Assembly: GCA_964016885.1 (NCBI GenBank)
Contig: OZ024747.1
Location: 69,378,001 to 69,442,000, forward strand
Length of the DNA stretch: 64,000 bases
DNA from: Eledone cirrhosa
Taxonomy: Eukaryota
Direction of reading: 5' to 3'
The notes beneath the pieces were generated by a model. The model had not been told where the DNA came from. It ran no database searches and saw nothing but the letters and a program-made list of their open reading frames with translations. The position numbers and the translations under genes were made by a program. Of the stretch, positions 22,174-37,947 are shown in pieces (positions within the stretch are counted from its first letter, which is position 1; each line of letters opens with the position of its first letter).

Positions 22174-22597
22174 ATCTGCATGATGTGGAAAATGTTCCAT
22201 CATCACTGCCCAAATGATGTTGGCATCGCCTTCAAGATACACCCAAGGCTTGGGCCCCGTGCTATCCGTCCCATACAAAAATCTAAATCACAACTCATAA
22301 CAACAATACGGTACAATTATTTCACCACAATTGGCCCTGCTCTCTTCAACATCACACCAGGACACGTCAAAACAGAAACTGACCACACAAAATTCAAGAA
22401 GTCTTTGGACAAATTCCTCCAAGTAATCCCGGACAAACCACCCACACCCGGATATGTCTCCGCAAACAGTAATTCTCTTCTCGAATGGGCCATGGTGCCC
22501 AAATCCTGAATTCAAAGACTTCGCCAGGTGGTGCTATTAAGTTAGACATGGCCTGGGCCAATACTGGCCAAAACATTTCAAAGTTATTCAAAGTTAT
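22168..22597 (+). mobile_element. CR1-group LINE copy 2 (3'-terminal ~430 nt)
   Basis: ORF 22180-22509 matches the C-terminal 109 aa of copies 1 and 3 with 2-4 substitutions; same tail. Confidence 0.92.
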
Positions 22598-22797: not shown

Positions 22798-25700
22798 ATG
22801 TTTTGGCCAGTATTGGCCCAGGCCATGTCTAACTTAATAGCACCACCTGGCGAAGTCTTTCAATTCAGGATTTGGGCACCATGGCCCATTCGAGAAGAGA
22901 ATTACTGTTTGCGGAGACATATCCGGGTGTGGGTGGTTTGTCCGGGATTACTTGGAGGAATTTGTCCAAAGACTTCTTGAATCTTGTGTGGTCAGTTTCT
23001 GTTTTGACGTGTCCTGGTGTGATGTTGAAGAGAGCAGGGCCGATTGAGGTGAAATAATTGTGCCGTATTGTTGTTATGAGTTGCGATTTAGATTTTTGAA
23101 TGGGACGGATAGCACGGGGCCCAAGCCTTGGGTGTATCTTGAAGGCGATGCCAACATCATTTGGGCAGTGATGATGCAACATTTTCCACATCATGCAGAT
23201 AATATAACGCTCACGGCGACGTTGGAGTGAGTAAAGTTTCAGGTTTTCCAATCGACCCCAGTAGTCAAGGTCTGACATGCCATCTATCTTTTTCGTGATT
23301 GCCCTTTGAGGAGCTTCAAGTTTCATGATACTTTGTTTCGTGTGGGGAGACCACAGTGGACAACAGTATTCAAGGTGTGGTCGGGCGAAAGTAGAGAAGA
23401 GAAGGATAATGGTGCGGGAATCTCTCGACTGGAAGGTTCTGAGGATCCAGGAACACATTCTGCGGGCCATGTCAACTTTGCTGCTTATATGCGTGGTCCA
23501 GCTTATGTTGCTGTCCACGGTTACTCCCAAGTCTCTGATGTTGTTAGATGCCACGAGAGTTTCCCCGGAGGGAAGGGAGTACGGGAGTTTCAGAGCATCC
23601 TCTTTTACAAAATGGATCAGTTCGAATTTGTCTTCGTTCAGTAACATGTTGTTCTTTTCTGCCCATTGGGTAACAGCCAGTAGGTCTGACTGAAGGCTTA
23701 TCCGGTCATCCACGCCATTGATGACCTTTTGGAGCTTGGAATCATCAGCGAAAATTTTAATGTTGCTGTGTTTGATGATGTCAGTGATGTCATTAATATA
23801 GATGATGAAGAGAAGTGGGCCCAACACAGTGCCTTGTGGGACTCCACTACTGACTTTGGCTGGGCTTGATTTGACTCCCTCAACTACAACATGTTGGGTT
23901 CTGTTTGACAGGAAGCTCTTGATCCACTGCAGCAGCTTTCCAGTGACACCAATATTGGACAGCTTTCTCAGTAGAATGTTATGATCAACCCTGTCAAAGG
24001 CCTTGCTGAAATCAAGGTAGATAACATCAGTGTTGGAACCCTCTCCCAAGGCTCTCAAAATGTCATCAAAGTGATGCAGTAGTTGCGTCAGGCAATCCCT
24101 TCCATTACGGAATCCATGCTGGTTGGAGTTCAGCATATTGTTACTCTCAAGGAAGTGGGTCATTCGCGATCTCACCACTCGCTCAAATACCTTAATGATA
24201 TGAGAGGTGAGTGAGATTGGACGGTAATTCACGGCAAGGGATTTGTTTCCCTTTTTGAAAACTGGGACAACAGACTGGGATAGAAGGTTTTCTGGCACAT
24301 ATCCAGCATCCAGTGAGTTCCGCCACAGATTGGCAAGAGGAGAAGCAAGTTGGTGTTGACACGCCTTCAAGACACAAGCAAGGAACCTATCGGGACCTAC
24401 TGCTGAATTATGTTTGATTTCCTTTATTGCCGCCAAGACATCAGGGGCGCCAAACGTTATGTCCGATAAGGTGTAATGGGGAGTAACATCGCCGATACAG
24501 CCCAGATCGGCCATATCAGGATTGCTGAAAACAGAGCAGTATTGTTTCTGCAGTATCTCACCCATGGTTTTAGCATTGTCTTGAAGAGTGCCATTTTCAT
24601 CAATTAGAGGGCCAACAGTAGAGCCAGTGATTTTGTGTTTTTTTTGCAAATGAAAAGAACACTTTGGGATTGAGTTTGATCTTCTCAATGGCCCAGGCCT
24701 CTTCAGCTCTTCTCTGATTGTTGATGAGGGACATTATGTTGTTTTGGAGGTTATGTTTTTTAATCTCTAGTGATGAAATGGCAGTCAAGTTGATGTGTTG
24801 CTGCTGACAGTATTTCAGCTTGTTGATTTTTTTGTTCGTTCTCTTAATTTTTCTGATGAGTGTTTTTCTATTTCTAGGGATTCTGCTCTTAGATTTGTTT
24901 ATAGTTCTTAATGGGGTGTGTTTAGCACATATGTTTGTAACAGTGTCCACAAAAGTCTGCCAGGACTTTTTGATGTTAGTGGGTGTATGAGTGTGCGTGA
25001 AGGACCAGTCGACATGTGCAAGATCATGACTGATCGCTTCCCAGTTTGCATTGTGGAAATCCATAGCGTCAAACGGATGGACAGGAGAAATGACATTGGG
25101 TTTGTATATTGGACGGTGGAATCTCAGATCACAGAGAACCATGTCATGATCAGAGAGTAGAGTTTTCTCCACTGCAATATTGTGGATATTGTCAGTGTGA
25201 TTGCTGAAAATTAAGTCTAGGACGTTTTTGTGGCACCTCGTTGGTTCGAGCACTAGTTGGGATAGGAAGAAATCATCCATGAAGTCAAGAAGCGATTCCA
25301 CAGCTTCCCTGTCAGAGGTTGAGGCAGAAGAACCTGGTGGCAGGGTGTTTGTGGACCAGTCAACTCCGGGGAGGTTGAAGTCCCCCATCATTAAGATGTT
25401 GTCAGGGTGACACTCTTGGATGAAACACTTTATGCTGTTGAGGCATTCCTTGAAGCATGGTACAGGCGTTTGGGGTGGCCTATAGAGCCCAACTACTAAT
25501 AGGTTGTTGGTTTGACTGAATACAGTGACTGCCTCACAGTATCCATTAGTGAATATGTTCATAGCCTCTGTTGAGAAAGAATTATGGACATAAATGGCAG
25601 TTCCGCCCTTTCTTCTGCCAGCGCGATCAGCACGGATGGCTTTGAAATTTTTCACTTTCACCTCGGCTTCCAAGTGGAGGTTACTGAGATGGGTTTCAGT

Positions 25701-25954
25701 GAGGACGAAGAAAGGGATGTGGTTTGGATGGACATCAATCCAGTCCTCCAGGAATTTGATCTTCGATTTTTGAGTATTGGTGGAAGGGCTGATGCCTTGG
25801 GCGTTAAGCAAAAATGTAGAGGCGAGAGTGGATGGTTTTAATTGTTTTGGTGTGTTGTTAATTTGTTTGTTTGTTAATGGCAGCAATGGGAGTTTGTGCA
25901 GTGGGGTGATAGTGGAGGGTGGTGCTGGGTGATAGCTCGAATGTTTTTTTCCAG
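22798..25954 (-). mobile_element. CR1-group LINE copy 3, essentially complete ORF2 (APE endonuclease + RT), no ORF1
   Basis: APE motifs [41 protein letters not shown] and SDH, followed by RT; 5' end abuts TA. Confidence 0.93.
22865..25954 (-). pseudogene. LINE ORF2 split by a 1-nt frameshift in a T homopolymer at ~24638-24645
   Basis: 8 T here versus 7 T in copy 1 (10110-10116); ORFs 24600-26627 and 22865-24688 join. May be a sequencing error. Confidence 0.85.
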
Positions 25955-26640: not shown

Positions 26641-26744
26641 CATATATATACATATATATATATATATATACATATATATACATATATATATACATATATA
26701 TATATGTATATATATATATATATGTATATATATGTATATATATG

Positions 26745-26778
<34 letters not shown>

Positions 26779-26908
26779 AAATTAATATATATATATATAT
26801 ATTAATTTTATATTTATATATATATATATGTATATATATGTATATATATATATATGTATATATATATGTATATATATGTATATATATATATATATATGTA
26901 TATATATG

Positions 26909-27705: not shown

Positions 27706-29516
27706 AGTTAACCTTAATATTATTAAGAACAATATACGTAATCTCTTTAACCAACATAACCTAAAAATCGAATTTGATAATAGTATCAAACTAGCTAATT
27801 TCTTGGATGTATCTCTTAATCTTGACACTGGCCTATATTACCCTTACCATAAAAACAATGAGAACCTAAATTATGTTAAATTTAAATCTAACCATCCTAC
27901 CAATATCAAGAATGCTATAGTTAGTAATATTGGAAAAAGAATATCTAACATATCCTCTAATAAAAACATCTTTGATGCTAACGCCAATTACTATAATAAC
28001 GCACTTTCTAAAGCCGGCTATCCAGATAAAATCAAATATAGTAAAGAAACAAATTCTAGAAAAACTTACAGTAGAATAATTAATCATGATCATTCCAATA
28101 ATTTTAATAAAAGACCTAGATACAAAAACATAATCTGGTATAATGCTCCTTTCTCCATCTCTATTAATAACAATATTCCTAAATTATTTTTTAGTGCCTT
28201 AAATGCTTCCCTCCCTCATATATCTATAGTAAAATATTTAACAAACACACCATCAAATTTTCTTATTCCACATCCTCCAATATTTCCAACATCATCTCTA
28301 AACACAACAATAAAATACTAAATACTAAATCTCTTCCTTCCAACATTGAATTTCATAATAACAGTAATAGTACTCCCGACGTCATTGTAAACCCTAGGCT
28401 AACTTCTGTAAACCCAAATACAACGTCAAACACAACTTCGCTAAATGTTCATAATCCAACTCTAAATCAAGAAACTATTATTCCTATTATTCCTATCGCA
28501 AACAACTTCTCCAATCCAATTCCTTCTATAGATAACACTAGGTCACGCATTAATAATCTCTCTAATTGCAACTGCCGCATTAAAAATAAATGTCCTCCTC
28601 AACAACCATTGTCTCGATAAAAACTTAATTTATGAACGTAAAATTATAACTAGCACCAATTCCTTCACCTATTTTGGCTCCACTTCCACCTCTTTTAAGC
28701 TCGTCTTTATAATCATCATTCATCTTTCAAATACAAACTTAAAAGAACCAACACTGCTCTCTCAGAACTCATATGGTCCTTAAAAGACAAAAACATTAAA
28801 TATACCATCTTTTGGAAGAAGATTTCTTCTGCATCCTCATACTTGAACAGCTCTCTATCTAAAATCTGTAATCTCTGCCTAAATGAAAAATTTACCATTA
28901 TCTCTAACCTAGATTCTATAATAAATAGACGTACAGATTTGTTTTCTATCCGCCTGCATAAATTCCATAGAACTTTTCACAAAGTATACAGTTAATATTC
29001 AATTCTTTATCAATTTAGAATCTTTTCTCAAAGGCACATATACATACACCTCTTTAAAATATACCCATCTTCCTACCATACTTTAAAGGGCATTATACAC
29101 TCTATAATACTTGTTTACTCATTACCCTCATTCTATCTTCACCTTGTAAAATCCTTCATAACATATACATTTGTTTTTTGACGTTAGAATATTCATCCGC
29201 AATCATTATTTTTTTTCTCTCTATCATAAATCTTTTTAATCTCAATTTCATCCTTAATTTATTATTTTTTTCTCCCCATCAACGAACTCATTCTTAATAC
29301 ATATTAACTCTTTATTCGCATATATTATCAATTCCCCCAATATACAAACTTTAACTTCACATTATTTTTCTCAAATCCTTCTACACACAAACCTTAAAAA
29401 TTTTTCTCTTCGTTAATTTTGAAATTGCCACAATTCTTATCAACATACCCTTTTTTGGCGTTAGAATATTCATCCACAATTATTATTTCTTCTCTCTATC
29501 TTCATACATAAATTCC

Positions 29517-29920
29517 CTTCGTTAATTTTCAAATTCCTTTAATTTATACATTATCTTCCAACGGTTCTCCACCTCTCTATGTAAAACAATATATCTTTCT
29601 CTCAGTTATAAAAACTATCTCTTTCTCTCTATCACCCATCTCTCCCTCTCCACCTTCACTCTCATCTCCTCCCCCTTTTTTCATCCTTTCCACCCCCCCT
29701 CCCTAAATAAAATACTTTTTCCTCGCACATATCCTCCTTTCGTTAATTTTCAAATTTTTTTTAATTTATACATTATCTTCCAACGGTTTTCAACCTCTCT
29801 ATGTAAAACAATATATCTCCTCTCAGTTATAAAAACTATCTCTTTCTCTCTATCACCCATCTCTCCCTCTCATCTCCTCCTCTTTTTCATCCTTCCCCCC
29901 CCTCTCTAAATAAAATATTT
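29517..29920 (+). repeat. ~220-bp direct duplication in the PLE 3' UTR
   Basis: TTCGTTAATTTTCAAAT...TAAATAAAATA at ~29517-29712 and ~29738-29917. Confidence 0.8.
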
Positions 29921-30017
29921 TTCCCAATATCACACATCAATCTAAAACCACTTTTCATATGTTGATTTAAAACTGCACTATCCACAAGTGTTTTTTAGCC
30001 TTCATATCATGTTCTCC

Positions 30018-30088
30018 TGTTGTATCTGATGAAAACACAAATATTATTGCATGATGATGTTTGTTTTTGAAATGCGCATAATAAAATA
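30018..30088 (+). ncRNA. Type I hammerhead ribozyme in the PLE pLTR
   Basis: TGTTGTAT-CTGATGA-long stem II (ACAAATATTATT gcat GATGATGTTTGT, with G-U pairs)-GAAA-TGCGCA-TA^ATAAAATA. Confidence 0.8.
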
Positions 30089-30089
30089 C

Positions 30090-30632
30090 ATGACTGACGC
30101 TTAAACAATTAAGTTAAAAGTGTACATCCACATATGTATACTGAAATACCAGTATGCATATAAATACACACACGTATACATATGTACATGTACCGAGTTT
30201 TTCACTGGACACTTTACTGTGAGTGTCCAGCTAGTCTGTATGTAACCAAACAGACAAACCGGTTTTTAGAGTCATACGGGTTTTCAAGGAAACACCTTTC
30301 CTCTATTCTCCAGAGAGCCAGACAGGAATATTGGACTAGTTTCGCTGGCTCACTGGAGAATAGAGGAAAGGTATTTCCTTGAAAACCCGTATGACTCTAA
30401 AAACCGGTTTGTCTGTTTGGTTACATACAGACTAGCTGGACACCCACAGTAAAGTGTCCAGTGAAAAACTCGGTACATGTACATATGTATACGTGTGTGT
30501 ATTTATATGCATACTAGTATTTCAGTATACATATGTGGATGTACACTTTTAACTTAATTGTTTAAGCGTCAGTCATACAAAAGTGAGTTACAAACGAAAC
30601 GAAATTTAATTTCGTTTCGTTATTTGTTTTTA
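30090..30632. mobile_element. Fold-back copy of the ~465-nt retrozyme-like family (diverged variant)
   Basis: Left arm 30090-30344 ends in a half HHR (GGACTAGTTTCG); right arm 30345-30632 is inverted; several substitutions versus 19541-21312. Confidence 0.87.
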
Positions 30633-30650
30633 TATATATATATATATAAA

Positions 30651-30691
<41 letters not shown>

Positions 30692-30718
30692 AAATATATA
30701 TATATATATATGTATAAA

Positions 30719-30779
<61 letters not shown>

Positions 30780-31142
30780 GTATAAATATATGTATATATA
30801 TATATATATATATATGTATAAATATATGTATATATATATATATATGTATAAATATATGTATATATATATGTATAAATATATGTATATATATATATATGTA
30901 TAAATATATGTATATATATATATGTATAAATATATGTATATATATATATATATGTATAAATATATGTATATATATATATATATGTATAAATATATGTATA
31001 TATATATATATATATGTATAAATATATGTTTATATATATATGTATAAATATATGTATATATATATATATATGTATAAATATATGTTTATATATATATATA
31101 TATATATGTATAAATATATGTTTATATATATATATGTATAAA

Positions 31143-31203
<61 letters not shown>

Positions 31204-31230
31204 AAATATATGTATATATATATATATATA
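30633..31230. repeat. (TA)n tract with TGTATAAATA subunits
   Basis: Directly visible; the same subunit recurs at 36655-37107 and 37662-38415. Confidence 0.9.
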
Positions 31231-31367
31231 TTAGAAAGTGAGGTTTTTTTACAAAATGAAAAATAACCGAGGTGTCCTACACGAGTGGAAGTATAAAGAG
31301 AAAGGGATGAAATCGAAAATGCAACTGAAGTCTTATTTTTAAAAAAAATATATATATTTATTTGGTT

Positions 31368-31405
31368 CCTTTACCGGTTTCGCAGTTCTTCTGCTTTTCT
31401 AAAGG
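31368..31405 (-). ncRNA. Decayed hammerhead ribozyme relic
   Basis: Minus strand CCTT-TAGAAAA-GCAG aagaa CTGC-GAAA-CCGG-TA^AAGG followed by AATAAA; all three stems intact, CUGAnGA box has 3 substitutions. Confidence 0.55.
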
Positions 31406-31540
31406 TGAGTTGAGATGGAGGGTCTGTGGTTTTTCTCACATATATATATATATATATATGTATAAATATATGTATATATGTATAAATATATGTATATATA
31501 TATATTTATATATATGTATAAATATATGTATATATATATA

Positions 31541-34490
31541 TGGAAAGTTATATTTAAATTGTTGGGTTACAACTAGTAAATATTTATAACTGATATAAAA
31601 GCACTCAACAAGTATTTGGAGTATATTTACGATATTAAATAAATGGAAACTATATTTATAAAACCATATTTATTTCATTATATATATTTCAGGGATATCA
31701 TATTAACAATATGTTATGCCTTCTTCAGACAAAATACAATATAGACAGTTTTATAGATAAATAGATTTGACATACCGTTCAACATCGACTTGTATTTGAA
31801 AAAGTTGATTTGGCAGTGAAAAATTGTAAACAGAAAGAAAGAAAGAAAGAAAGAAGGAAAGAAAGAAAGAAAACGAAGAAAAAGAAGAAAAAGAAGAAAT
31901 GCATGCAACAAAATAGAGAGATGGAAAGATAGATAAAGAGAAGAACTTCATGTAAAGAAACAGAGAGAGATATATAGAGAGAGGAAATAGATAGAGATAG
32001 ATATATATAGAGAAAAGTAGGTAGTTGAACGACGTATCAATGATACATTTATTTATTTATTTATTTATTTAGCTCTAGTATTAATGTAATGGAGATATAT
32101 GTGGTTAGGAAGGAACCAGCCGTTATATATAGAGAAAAATGAAAAGTAACCAGACATAGGCGAGGCTGAATTTAAAAACCCTATGTTTTAATGTAGAAAT
32201 ATTAGTTCGTATAAAAACCAGGCACTATAATGTAAATATCAGTATTCCTGAATGAGACACGTATCTATAATGTGTGAAAAGTAATGATCTTATGTCTAGT
32301 TTTAAAAATTCATATGTTTATATGATAACTACAAACATCGATGTGAATTTACGTGATCAACTCTGCAAACCCCTATTTCACACGGAGAACATTCTCATTG
32401 TGCTATAAAAATTTAAGTATACATATATATGTATATATACACATATATATAGAGTCTATATTAATTTTAACAATACTATTCTTGTCTTTACTCTACATGA
32501 TTATCTATCAAGCAGAAATAGAGGACAGATTTCAATATATTAATAAAAATATCAGAAACAAAAACAAAAATAATAATAATAATAATAATAATAAACAAAT
32601 AAATAAAATAGAAAACTAAAAAATATTACATATTAAAAATGAAAATATTAAAAATATTAAAAAATATTAAAAAATATTAAAATAATAAAAATAAAAACAT
32701 AATATGCCACGCAAATCGACCACAAAGATCAACCCTTCAAAATTAATTGACAATATATTGCCAAGTTCATTATAAGCATCAGAGTCGAAAACAGATAAAG
32801 CTAAAAATTATTTACCAAATCGCGTCTAGCAGAAATCATTTCAAAAGTTTAGGATGCCCATTTGGTCTACATATGTTCTTATATTTAATATAGAAGTTTA
32901 TCTAGTGTAACGTTTATTCGATATATTTGGAGCATCAACTTTTAGGGTAGTTTAATTTTTCATGAAGAATGTTTAAAATAAAAATAAAAATAAAAAGAAG
33001 AATAAAAAGAAGAAATCGAAAGATTTATCGGCTAGTTTCCCAAATAATTACAAATCAAACTAAATATACTACATTTTAAATTTAAATTTATATTTAAAAG
33101 TTGAGTTCAATCTATGTTTGCAGCAACTGAATAAATTTGTCCATAGATTAAGGGAATTTTTAGATTTTAGTATAAAGAATATCTCCGCCGCGCAGAGGTC
33201 ACATGTCTCAGAGGATGAATTAAAAGGTATCCCTCTTGAGACTATATTCCAAGCCGTCGAATATCTAACGTTATCTTGCCTAAGTTGCCAGAGTACGCCT
33301 GATAGTGCTGTTTAAGATTTTTTGCTTGGATCTGTGAAAGAATTCTTGTGGTTATTATAGCGAAGTTTAAATTCCGTCGATGTGGAACCGACGTAGTTAA
33401 AAGAATTAGAGTCCGTTTTAACATTACATTTGTATATTATATTTTTAACTAAGCAGTTGTTATTTAACGGACATTTAGATCTATCTCTACAGTTACATTT
33501 GTTAACTTGTATATTATTTATGCTATTATCGCTAGGTTTTAAGTTCCTATTATTTATTCTATTAATATTTTGTGCTAAATTTTTGGTGGATGAGTAGGTT
33601 AATTTTATAGTATGTCTATTGAAAATTGAGTGATACCTATGTGTTCTAGGGAAGCGATTATCAAGAGCTTTAAAAAATAGTTTAGCGATGTGGGTTTTAA
33701 TGTTTAGTGAGAAAGGGGGGGCAAACCATATTATGTTCCTAGTTCTATTTCTTTTTTGGCTTTTGGAATTATTGTAATGCTTTCTATTATAGTTGTTAAG
33801 GTTGTGGCCGTAATTAAAATAGTTGTTATTTTGTTTAGTTTGTCTATCATTATCTATGTACATAATTTTATCACTATATCCTGCTCTAGCTAACGCTTCA
33901 TTGTAGTACTGGGCTTTTTCGTCGAAAATCTTTCTATTAGACGAGATTCTAGAGATACGTTTTTGAACAGAGTTTACTATAGTGTTTTTGACAGATCTGG
34001 GGTGGTTAGAGTTAAAGTTGACATAGTTTAAGTTTTCATTCAACTTGTGAAATGGATAGTGAAGACATGTGTTGAGATTTAATGTTATATCTAGGAAATT
34101 GACTATTCTATGGTTGTTCTCATTTTCTATTTTTAGATTAAAGTAATTAAAAAATTGTGTAATTTGTTTTCTTTTTCTATTTAGTTCAGAGTTATTATTA
34201 TCAATAAGTAAAAGCATGTCATCTCTATATAAACCTCCGGTAGTACCAGGTATTTTCCTATGTAGCGAATTGATTAAAAATAAGCCCACAAGGTCAGTTA
34301 CCTGAGCTGAGTCGGATGATCCCATAGTAATGTCAAAATTGCTATCTCTATCTGCTCTGGTCCATAGTTGGTCATTAAATTCAATCAATGTTTTCCTAGC
34401 CGATAATATAATGTGCATTTCATTGCTATTTAGGTCTGTATGTTTGAATGCGTAATTTAGTGCCTTATTTAGTAGATTAGGGGTAATAGA
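31541..34490 (-). mobile_element. Penelope-like element (Hydra-clade-like), 5'-truncated; left arm of an inverted pair
   Basis: RT FDITMGSSDSAQVTDLVGL, GLYRDDML, NFLDITLNL, SNHP; EN CNCRDRSKCPL..CL..IIY..YVGSTSTEFKLRYNNHKNSF; long 3' UTR with an HHR at 31664-31744. Confidence 0.9.
33080..34490 (-). pseudogene. PLE RT/GIY-YIG ORF with an in-frame TAA at 33312-33314
   Basis: The frame continues past the stop: TALSGVLWQL..WNIV..TCDLCAAEIFFIL..LFSCCKHR; end coordinate approximate. Confidence 0.85.
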
Positions 34491-36654
34491 AAGCATTACA
34501 ATAATTCCAAAAGCCAAAAAAGAAATAGAACTAGGAACATAATATGGTTTGCCCCCCCTTTCTCACTAAACATTAAAACCCACATCGCTAAACTATTTTT
34601 TAAAGCTCTTGATAATCGCTTCCCTAGAACACATAGGTATCACTCAATTTTCAATAGACATACTATAAAATTAACCTACTCATCCACCAAAAATTTAGCA
34701 CAAAATATTAATAGAATAAATAATAGGAACTTAAAACCTAGCGATAATAGCATAAATAATATACAAGTTAACAAATGTAACTGTAGAGATAGATCTAAAT
34801 GTCCGTTAAATAACAACTGCTTAGTTAAAAATATAATATACAACTGTAATGTTAAAACGGACTCTAATTCTTTTAACTACGTCGGTTCCACATCGACGGA
34901 ATTTAAACTTCGCTATAATAACCACAAGAATTCTTTCACAGATCCAAGCAAAAAATCTTAAACAGCACTATCAGGCGTACTCTGGCAACTTAGGCAAGAT
35001 AACGTTAGATATTCGACGGCTTGGAATATAGTCTCAAGAGGGATACCTTTTAATTCATCCTCTGAGACATGTGACCTCTGCGCGGCGGAGATATTCTTTA
35101 TACTAAAATCTAAAAATTCCCTTAATCTATGGACAAATTTATTCAGTTGCTGCAAACATAGATTGAACTCAACTTTTAAATATAAATTTAAATTTAAAAT
35201 GTAGTATATTTAGTTTGATTTGTAATTATTTGGGAAACTAGCCGATAAATCTTTCGATTTCTTCTTTTTATTCTTCTTTTTATTTTTATTTTTATTTTAA
35301 ACATTCTTCATGAAAAATTAAACTACCCTAAAAGTTGATGCTCCAAATATATCGAATAAACGTTACACTAGATAAACTTCTATATTAAATATAAGAACAT
35401 ATGTAGACCAAATGGGCATCCTAAACTTTTGAAATGATTTCTGCTAGACGCGATTTGGTAAATAATTTTTAGCTTTATCTGTTTTCGACTCTGATGCTTA
35501 TAATGAACTTGGCAATATATTGTCAATTAATTTTGAAGGGTTGATCTTTGTGGTCGATTTGCGTGGCATATTATGTTTTTATTTTTATTATTTTAATATT
35601 TTTTAATATTTTTTAATATTTTTAATATTTTCATTTTTAATATGTAATATTTTTTAGTTTTCTATTTTATTTATTTGTTTATTATTATTATTATTATTAT
35701 TATTTTTGTTTTTGTTTCTGATATTTTTATTAATATATTGAAATCTGTCCTCTATTTCTGCTTGATAGATAATCATGTAGAGTAAAGACAAGAATAGTAT
35801 TGTTAAAATTAATATAGACTCTATATATATGTGTATATATACACATATATGTATACTTAAATTTTTATAGCACAATGAGAATGTTCTCCGTGTGAAATAG
35901 GGGTTTGCAGAGTTGATCACGTAAATTCACATCGATGTTTGTAGTTATCATATAAACATATGAATTTTTAAAACTAGACATAAGATCATTACTTTTCACA
36001 CATTATAGATACGTGTCTCATTCAGGAATACTGATATTTACATTATAGTGCCTGGTTTTTATACGAACTAATATTTCTACATTAAAACATAGGGTTTTTA
36101 AATTCAGCCTCGCCTATGTCTGGTTACTTTTCATTTTTCTCTCTATATAACGGCTGGTTCCTTCCTAACCACATATATCTCCATTACATTAATACTAGAG
36201 CTAAATATATAAATAAATAAATAAATAAATAAATGTATCATTGATACGTCGTTCAACTACCTACTTTTCTCTATATATATCTATCTCTATCTATTTCCTC
36301 TCTCTATATATCTCTCTCTGTTTCTTTACATGAAGTTCTTCTCTTTATCTATCTTTCCATCTCTCTATTTTGTTGCATGCATTTCTTCTTTTTCTTCTTT
36401 TTCTTCGTTTTCTTTCTTTCTTTCCTTCTTTCTTTCTTTCTTTCTTTCTTTCTGTTTACAATTTTTCACTGCCAAATCAACTTTTTCAAATACAAGTCGA
36501 TGTTGAACGGTATGTCAAATCTATTTATCTATAAAACTGTCTATATTGTATTTTGTCTGAAGAAGGCATAACATATTGTTAATATGATATCCCTGAAATA
36601 TATATAATGAAATAAATATGGTTTTATAAATATAGTTTCCATTTATTTAATATC

Positions 36655-36655
<1 letters not shown>
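34484..36655 (+). mobile_element. Inverted ~2.15-kb copy of the same PLE (EN domain + 3' UTR/pLTR)
   Basis: Reverse complement of ~31630-33789 with few differences; carries the same TAA stop. Confidence 0.92.
36541..36621 (+). ncRNA. Type I hammerhead ribozyme in the PLE pLTR (mirror copy at 31664-31744 on the minus strand)
   Basis: CTATATTGTATTTTGT-CTGAAGA-AGG...CCT-GAAA-TATATA-TA^ATGAAATAAATATGG; ~15-bp stem I with G-U pairs and one bulge. Confidence 0.75.
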
Positions 36656-36730
<75 letters not shown>

Positions 36731-37056: not shown

Positions 37057-37947
37057 GTATATATATATGTATAAATAGATGTATAAATATATGTATATAT
37101 ATATATATAGTAGAATAATTGAGTATCGAAAAATCGGCACACGAGTTCACGATAAACAAAATTCGAGATGAGCGGCAGAGGGCTCTATAATTCAAATAAA
37201 TCAGAGCTATAACTATCGTTAAAATACCGTCACACGTAGAATATGTCTACAATCAACCAAATAACCGACAAATTTCGATATGGAAGATTCGGGACACTCA
37301 GATAAATTATCAATAAATCAATAAATGAAATGAATGTAAAAAGCATACCCGGACCCACTAGAGAGATGGTATATCTAGCTTCTTGGGTTTCTGTAAATCC
37401 TTAAACCGTCCTCTATCAGCTCACATAAAAATATAAGACTTACAGACAACGGGGGACTGGAGTTACTTCTTCAACGAGCTTTAGTCCAACGGATGAAAAG
37501 ACAAAACCCAGGCTAAAAATACGCACATGGATTTCAGCAAGGGAGATAACCTTTATATCCGCAAAAAATATTCGTAAAAATGTGGAATAACACATATCGA
37601 ATAAGAGTGCTCAATAGACGAGTTAAAATAAACAGGAGCTATTCATCATTTAATAGAATCGACATATATGTATAAATATATGTATATATATATATATGTA
37701 TAAATATATGTATAAATATATGTATATATATATGTATATGTATATATATATGTATAAATATATGTATATGTATATATATATGTATAAATATATGTATAAA
37801 TATATGTATATGTATATATATATGTATAAATATATGTATATATATATATGTATAAATATATGTATATGTATATGTATATATATATGTATATATATATATA
37901 TATATATATGTATAAATATATGTATATGTATATATATATATGTATAA

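Follow-up and report, generated by a model that had tools for sequence, protein, structure and literature searches.

The window, that is the whole stretch of 64,000 nucleotides analysed here, contains at 27708..30089 on the plus strand a 5'-truncated Hydra-like Penelope element (PLE1), which was recognised by tblastn of its relatives (E 1e-48). It retains the end of the RT, a CxCX5C linker, the EN and a 3' UTR of about 1.1 kb, and a TA tract adjoins its 5' end. The linker reads CNCRIKNKC, which fits the CxCX5C pattern preceding a C-terminal EN, and the EN region aligns with the relatives through frameshifts, of which tblastn places three in 1.28 kb of the ORF (near 28205, 28597 and 28703). The region carrying RWK and DKT is absent from PLE1, while the full-length relatives have RWK or RWR in 37/37 and DKT in 34/37 cases. 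Pfam gave no matches in the three Hydra-type pieces of the window that were scanned. Within the 3' UTR some 200 bp are duplicated in tandem at 29506-29924, with 85% identity between the copies.

Close to its 3' end PLE1 carries a putative type I hammerhead (30004..30093, plus strand), identified from a core seen by eye and from its fold. The core CTGATGA lies at 30026, and the strand GAAA-T-GCGC-ATA gives a predicted cut after 30080. Stem II is long, stem III is a 2-bp palindrome, and stems I and II fold as expected; the stems contain mismatches, the z-score of the fold is only -1.1, and Rfam returned no hammerhead family here up to E 10. The complete core and stems, as judged by inspection and folding, suggest the 3' hammerhead of a PLE pLTR, a call made by eye.

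In the assembly sequence the predicted cut is followed by ATAAAATAC (30081-30089) and then, from 30090, by sequence of the 465 retrozyme family, with no TA tract between them. PLE1 lies on the plus strand and the adjoining retrozyme arm on the minus strand, so the two are joined 3' end to 3' end. The junction (30081..30093) comprises the 9 nt of PLE past the cut and then 2-4 nt (AT or ATGA) possibly common to both elements. The preliminary description, in which a PLE hammerhead runs straight into the 465 family, is borne out as far as the orientation and the missing TA tract are concerned, but ATAAAATAC is not a plausible native end of PLE1, since comparable elements extend at least 30 nt past the cut and the pairing of stem I reaches 4 nt into the retrozyme arm. 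The distal part of the stem (30088-30093) forms 6 bp over the join by using these 4 nt. Such a 6-bp distal stem is given by 3/465 unit start positions and, among starts with AT, by 3/39 (~0.08), and the 4-nt overlap is thus a weak hint that ATGA belonged to both PLE1 and the retrozyme arm.

The 465-family DNA at 30090-30632 is a 5'-truncated palindrome with arms of 255 and 288 nt, corresponding to 0.55 and 0.62 units, and self-BLAST shows 30090-30576 to be palindromic. The left, short arm (30090..30344, minus strand) starts 11 nt ahead of the cut site of the ribozyme (5' end) and extends to unit position 245 (3' end), while the right, long arm (30345..30632, plus strand) runs from unit position 14 to 300-301 and then meets TA. 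The excess of the right arm forms a one-sided tail of 55-56 nt (30577..30632, plus strand) with a strong hairpin (-14.4 kcal/mol, z -3.4). Neither arm holds a CTGATGA core. With less than the one complete unit with ribozyme that would make it a retrozyme, the sequence is a dead fragment of the family; what had been called a retrozyme copy is indeed 465-family DNA, but in the form of an inverted pair of truncated arms and not of a monomer. Beyond it lies a TA-type microsatellite (30633..31231), in which a search for a displaced PLE1 terminus found none. The microsatellite variant TAAATATATG is confined to the right of 30.6 kb, so the tract left of PLE1 differs from the tract beyond the retrozyme.

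Both ends of the fragment are consistent with native ones. The long end is common to two independent 465 insertions (unit positions 300 and 301), the end of the right arm being that of the large array described below, and the left arm is 17 nt longer than the short arm of that array, which favours a native start over erosion. The arms differ from each other at 4/232 sites, and comparison of either arm with the array units gives 11-16 differences, most of them common to both; about 11 variants relative to the array are found in both arms. From these comparisons we regard the fragment as a single real, aged insertion from a different 465 subfamily. The differences between its arms exceed those in the arrays (2/442 and 4/900; p 0.047) and in PLE2 (3/2161; p 0.002), which would make it older than both, provided that arm differences track age; differences between templates could inflate them. 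A fold-back assembly artefact was considered as the source of the palindrome and judged unlikely. At the centre of the palindrome (30334-30364) both arms break off no more than about 14 nt from the cut site of the ribozyme, and in the 310-family array of the window the right arm begins at the hammerhead stem I; a folded ribozyme may stall the RT.

The window holds two larger retrozyme insertions. The 465-family array at 19541..21310 consists of 2.7 inverted units and 1.1 further units, with a one-sided tail of 72 nt, TA on both sides and four hammerheads. Its units are repeated head to tail (period 465, 2.7 copies, 99%), and there is no ORF of 80 aa inside the unit, which is non-coding. Rfam gave four Hammerhead_HH9 matches of 38.9 bits (E 2.5e-6), under the gathering score of 52, with a complete core. 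A type I hammerhead in each tandem unit, with predicted self-cleavage, identifies the family as a retrozyme. The 310-family array at 1222..4187 has 2.9 inverted units and 6.7 further units, a one-sided tail of 36 nt and again TA on both sides. Thus all 3/3 retrozyme insertions of the window, from two families, have head-to-head inverted arms with the 3' ends outward and a one-sided tail, of 72 nt (465 array), 55-56 nt (30090-30632 copy) and 36 nt (310 array). In the 465 family the start sites fall at unit positions 228-245 and 300, in the 310 family at 129 and 165. Because the array arms, of 1.1 to 6.7 units, pass through the cut site, we infer a circular or an uncut multimeric RNA as their template.

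Two PLEs of the window are built in the same way as the retrozyme insertions, with inverted arms and a one-sided tail. PLE2 (31542..36656) is a younger Hydra-like element with an inverted structure and a tail of 87 nt, and serves both as comparator and as rival candidate for the mobiliser; at 47% protein identity PLE1 and PLE2 are separate families. Its coding region has one stop, against the three frameshifts of PLE1. Since this in-frame stop, in the EN domain, is common to both arms, the template itself was probably defective, and was either moved in trans or copied once. PLE3 (5073-5512) is a third PLE-type 3' end, present solely in the form of an inverted pair; its hammerheads (5304 on the plus and 5221 on the minus strand) are minimal and its tail is about 50 nt long. 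At 545-605 another 60 nt of this end stand alone in TA. The tails share no common hairpin, with z of -3.4 and -3.3 in the 465 family, -2.6 in PLE3, -1.0 in PLE2 and -0.6 in the 310 family. PLE4 (5601-7730, minus strand) has an open frame of 481 aa with RT and GIY-YIG according to Pfam and a non-Hydra cysteine pattern; the CTGAnGA core was sought in its 3' UTR and is absent. PLE3 and PLE4 face each other with their 3' ends, separated by about 100 bp of TA.

In the first 38.5 kb (1-38.5 kb), TA tract accounts for 39% of the sequence. Of 20 recognised element ends in this part 18 abut TA, and the other two are those of the PLE1-retrozyme junction; this count leaves out ends at gaps, at inversion centres and at four islands, and leans towards TA, as TA masking partly defined the segments. 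Given this density, a single tail-to-tail join is nothing out of the ordinary unless a genome-wide count of such joins shows otherwise. The islands in the TA tracts (4541-4643, 11517-11929, 31232-31439 and 37110-37663) gave no blastx match to PLE relatives or to window ORFs. The polarity of the microsatellite flips once, at about 26700-26800, from a CATA type (0.5 to 26.7 kb) to a TATG type (26.7 to 38.4 kb), and a small palindrome lies near 26790 at this flip. A LINE, which we take to be CR1-like, is also present in the TA tracts. LINE sequence lies at 8266-10786, 22173-22590 and 22798-25953; it comprises two copies, 99% identical, and an inverted 3' piece that faces one of them across N gaps, an arrangement that may be an assembly artefact.

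The position at which PLE1 stops was compared with that of other Hydra-like elements. PLE1 runs 9 nt past the cut, compared with 30-355 nt (median 79) in 24/24 published Hydra consensus ends, which we computed for the families with a 3' hammerhead in Files S1 and S2 of Craig 2021, leaving out one family with only a 5' motif and two that are not in File S2. Metagenome relatives extend 33-112 nt past the cut in the 7/77 loci having both a core and a downstream TA tract, a thin comparison in which the strict hammerhead motif was found in 16/77 loci and a TA tract in 12/77. Within the window the corresponding distances are 50 and 137 nt for PLE2 and 121 and about 170 nt for PLE3. As the end is short against all published Hydra ends and the metagenome relatives, PLE1 was probably trimmed, either at the insertion of the retrozyme or through a deletion afterwards. 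These distances speak against a naturally short end at +9 to +13, with the proviso that consensus ends may include a tail of 30-40 nt. In two of the metagenome contigs (L051 2512-4732 and L055 1374-3227) inverted repeats, some with minus-strand hammerheads, lie beside Hydra-type ORFs.

In target-primed reverse transcription (TPRT), target DNA primes cDNA at the 3' end of the element. A template switch would therefore join two elements head to tail, and the paired-arm reaction of PLEs would join them 5' to 5'. From this we infer that a 3'-to-3' join arises when one element is primed on the DNA of the other or when a spacer is later lost, and here one of the two was probably primed on the DNA of the other. 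The retrozyme moreover comes with two arms of its own, a full pair, so that PLE1 is its flank and not a partner arm. Overall, we consider it most likely that the fragment beside PLE1 represents an independent landing in a crowded insertion hotspot, and give a probability just short of one half (about 0.48) to the reading that PLE1 and the 465 fragment arrived separately, the retrozyme probably second, with loss of the PLE terminus. A PLE RT-endonuclease would have cut both strands of AT-rich DNA, just behind the PLE1 hammerhead and in the neighbouring TA tract. Each cut end would then prime cDNA on retrozyme RNA, at the long start (unit position 300) and at the short start (245), perhaps aided by the 2-4-nt match. 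Both cDNAs would stop near the ribozyme and be joined head to head, and the PLE terminus lying between the two cuts would be lost.

The same join would result if both elements had entered one TA tract independently and a later microhomology-mediated deletion had taken the PLE terminus and the spacer. The density of the hotspot, with its 39% of TA, and the tail-to-tail pair of PLE3 and PLE4 with TA still between them provide the setting for such an event, microhomology deletions in PLEs are on record (Arkhipova 2013, PMC3846280), and there is a 2-4-nt overlap at the join. However, such a deletion would have to end all but precisely where the arm has a native-looking end (unit position 245) and remove all TA, and we consider this course unlikely, if far from negligible. 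Rather less probable is the reverse order, in which PLE1 was primed on the end of a pre-existing retrozyme arm and started unusually near its own ribozyme. The geometry is symmetrical, no deletion of the target is necessary, and the 5' end of PLE1 lies in TA, but the RT would have had to start at +9 to +13, below every comparator. With its three frameshifts and the mismatches in its hammerhead stems PLE1 also appears more decayed. The relative age of PLE1 and retrozyme is nevertheless equivocal, since changes at conserved residues number 9/67 in PLE1 and 6/67 in PLE2, not clearly higher in PLE1 despite three frameshifts versus one stop; three indels in 1.28 kb of PLE1 could be compatible with the age of the retrozyme copy.

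That the join is an assembly error, a collapsed TA tract or a misjoin, has a very small probability in our estimate. The junction is known from the assembly sequence, and the window contains two gaps of 100 N, with inverted LINE ends and 99% duplicates on their flanks. On the other hand, the arms differ from each other yet share private variants, their ends match independent insertions, and the join lies in unique, non-microsatellite sequence and lacks the PLE terminus as well. Least probable of all, with a chance that we rate as slight, is that a single RT event co-inserted PLE and retrozyme, which would make the enzyme of PLE1 the mobiliser. The elements are directly adjacent, theirs are the sole recognised ends without TA in the first 38.5 kb, and both are of PLE type and target TA. 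Their tail-to-tail arrangement is nevertheless expected from neither a template switch nor the paired-arm reaction, the retrozyme owns a complete pair of arms, and the 3' end of PLE1 has no homology to the 465 unit. The composite insertion by one RT proposed in the preliminary description is thus unsupported, the join being 3' to 3' instead of head to tail or 5' to 5'. Targeting of the pLTR, its other proposal, is possible and fits the trimmed end of PLE1, but the cutting of AT-rich DNA is generic and the 465 family lacks homology to PLE1. For these same two reasons the junction is not the most direct hint of the mobilising enzyme that it had been taken for.

Mobilisation of the retrozymes by a PLE enzyme draws its support from the insertion architecture and not from the join with PLE1. 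All three retrozyme insertions carry the PLE signature of inverted arm, one-sided tail and TA tracts, and head-to-head arms with a tail have been described as unseen in TPRT of LINEs (Craig 2021, PMC8557442). Of the marks of a PLE passenger, the inverted arm and the one-sided tail are present, while 3' sequence shared with the three hammerhead-bearing PLE ends of the window is not: 20 local alignments against shuffles gave no homology between these ends and the retrozyme units. The best of them (p 0.005) was gapped, AT-rich and on the opposite strand of PLE2, and PLE1 against the unit gave p 0.41 and 0.12. Since the window has several PLE families (PLE1, PLE2 and PLE4) and TA-targeting Naiads are also published (Craig 2021, PMC8557442, File S1), the architecture suggests an enzyme of the PLE class, not the family of PLE1 in particular. 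A more specific proposal would be that a Hydra-clade RT-endonuclease integrates retrozyme circles via two RNA start sites, that the junction records a nick of the pLTR behind the hammerhead, and that such joins recur genome-wide and identify the clade; taken as a whole we find this doubtful. The question of which enzyme moves animal retrozymes still rests on arguments from co-occurrence and from homology of pLTRs. To these the junction contributes little, but the signature on every retrozyme insertion in the window is evidence, at the level of the insertion, that favours a PLE enzyme over a LINE; the start sites that it defines in the 465 and 310 families are open to testing in the existing in vitro PLE assay.

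For the metazoan non-LTR retrozymes, PLEs have been put forward as strong candidates for the mobiliser (Cervera and de la Pena 2020, PMC7229834), and animal retrozymes have been described, on the strength of co-occurrence and homology of pLTRs in Xenopus, as non-autonomous PLE derivatives (Li, Clavereau, Pollet 2026, bioRxiv 10.64898/2026.07.22.740005). Our conclusion that PLE machinery moves retrozymes is like that of the latter study, the main text of which is without analysis of tail, inversion or junction; the window retrozymes, in contrast, have no homology to the window pLTRs. The inverted arm with tail was not found described on retrozymes in the literature covered, which included cephalopods and a review of 2024 and was incomplete. 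Mobilisation by PLEs has already been proposed, and evidence from insertion architecture, of a kind that we did not find in print, is a modest addition to it.

The window elements resemble the metazoan non-LTR retrozymes (PMC7229834) in having tandem units that are non-coding and contain a single type I hammerhead, and arms of more than one unit that pass through the cut site, as from circular or multimeric RNA. They differ in that the insertions here are two-armed and inverted with a one-sided tail and TA tracts, the word 'inverted' being absent from that paper, and in that the copy at the junction lacks the ribozyme core. The published PLE signature consists of head-to-head arms, a one-sided tail and an AT-rich or (TA)n target (Craig 2021, PMC8557442; Arkhipova 2013, PMC3846280), head to head being the usual arrangement (Arkhipova 2013), and in vitro the tail spans two RT start sites (Frangieh 2024, PMC11167929). 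In the same in vitro system both strands were cut and extended in AT-rich DNA, including the element's own pLTR, and priming required no homology. A PLE that inserted secondarily into another one, with the orientation reversed, has also been described, namely Pen2a in Pen3 (Arkhipova 2013). Compared with published PLE insertions, the cargo here is a multimeric retrozyme, the tails are 36, 55-56 and 72 nt instead of the usual 30-40, and the TSD is unreadable. PLE1 itself is like the Hydra-clade PLEs (Craig 2021) in its C-terminal EN, CxCX5C linker, putative 3' hammerhead and, on the 5' side, its TA flank, and unlike them in being 5'-truncated and frameshifted and in ending 9 nt past the cut. 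Chlamys elements of the MRC1 type share 3' sequence with an autonomous family, whereas no such partner was found among the PLE ends of the window; like MRC1 and the other non-autonomous Chlamys elements (Craig 2021), the retrozymes described here appear as non-autonomous PLE passengers in multicopy, head-to-tail form.
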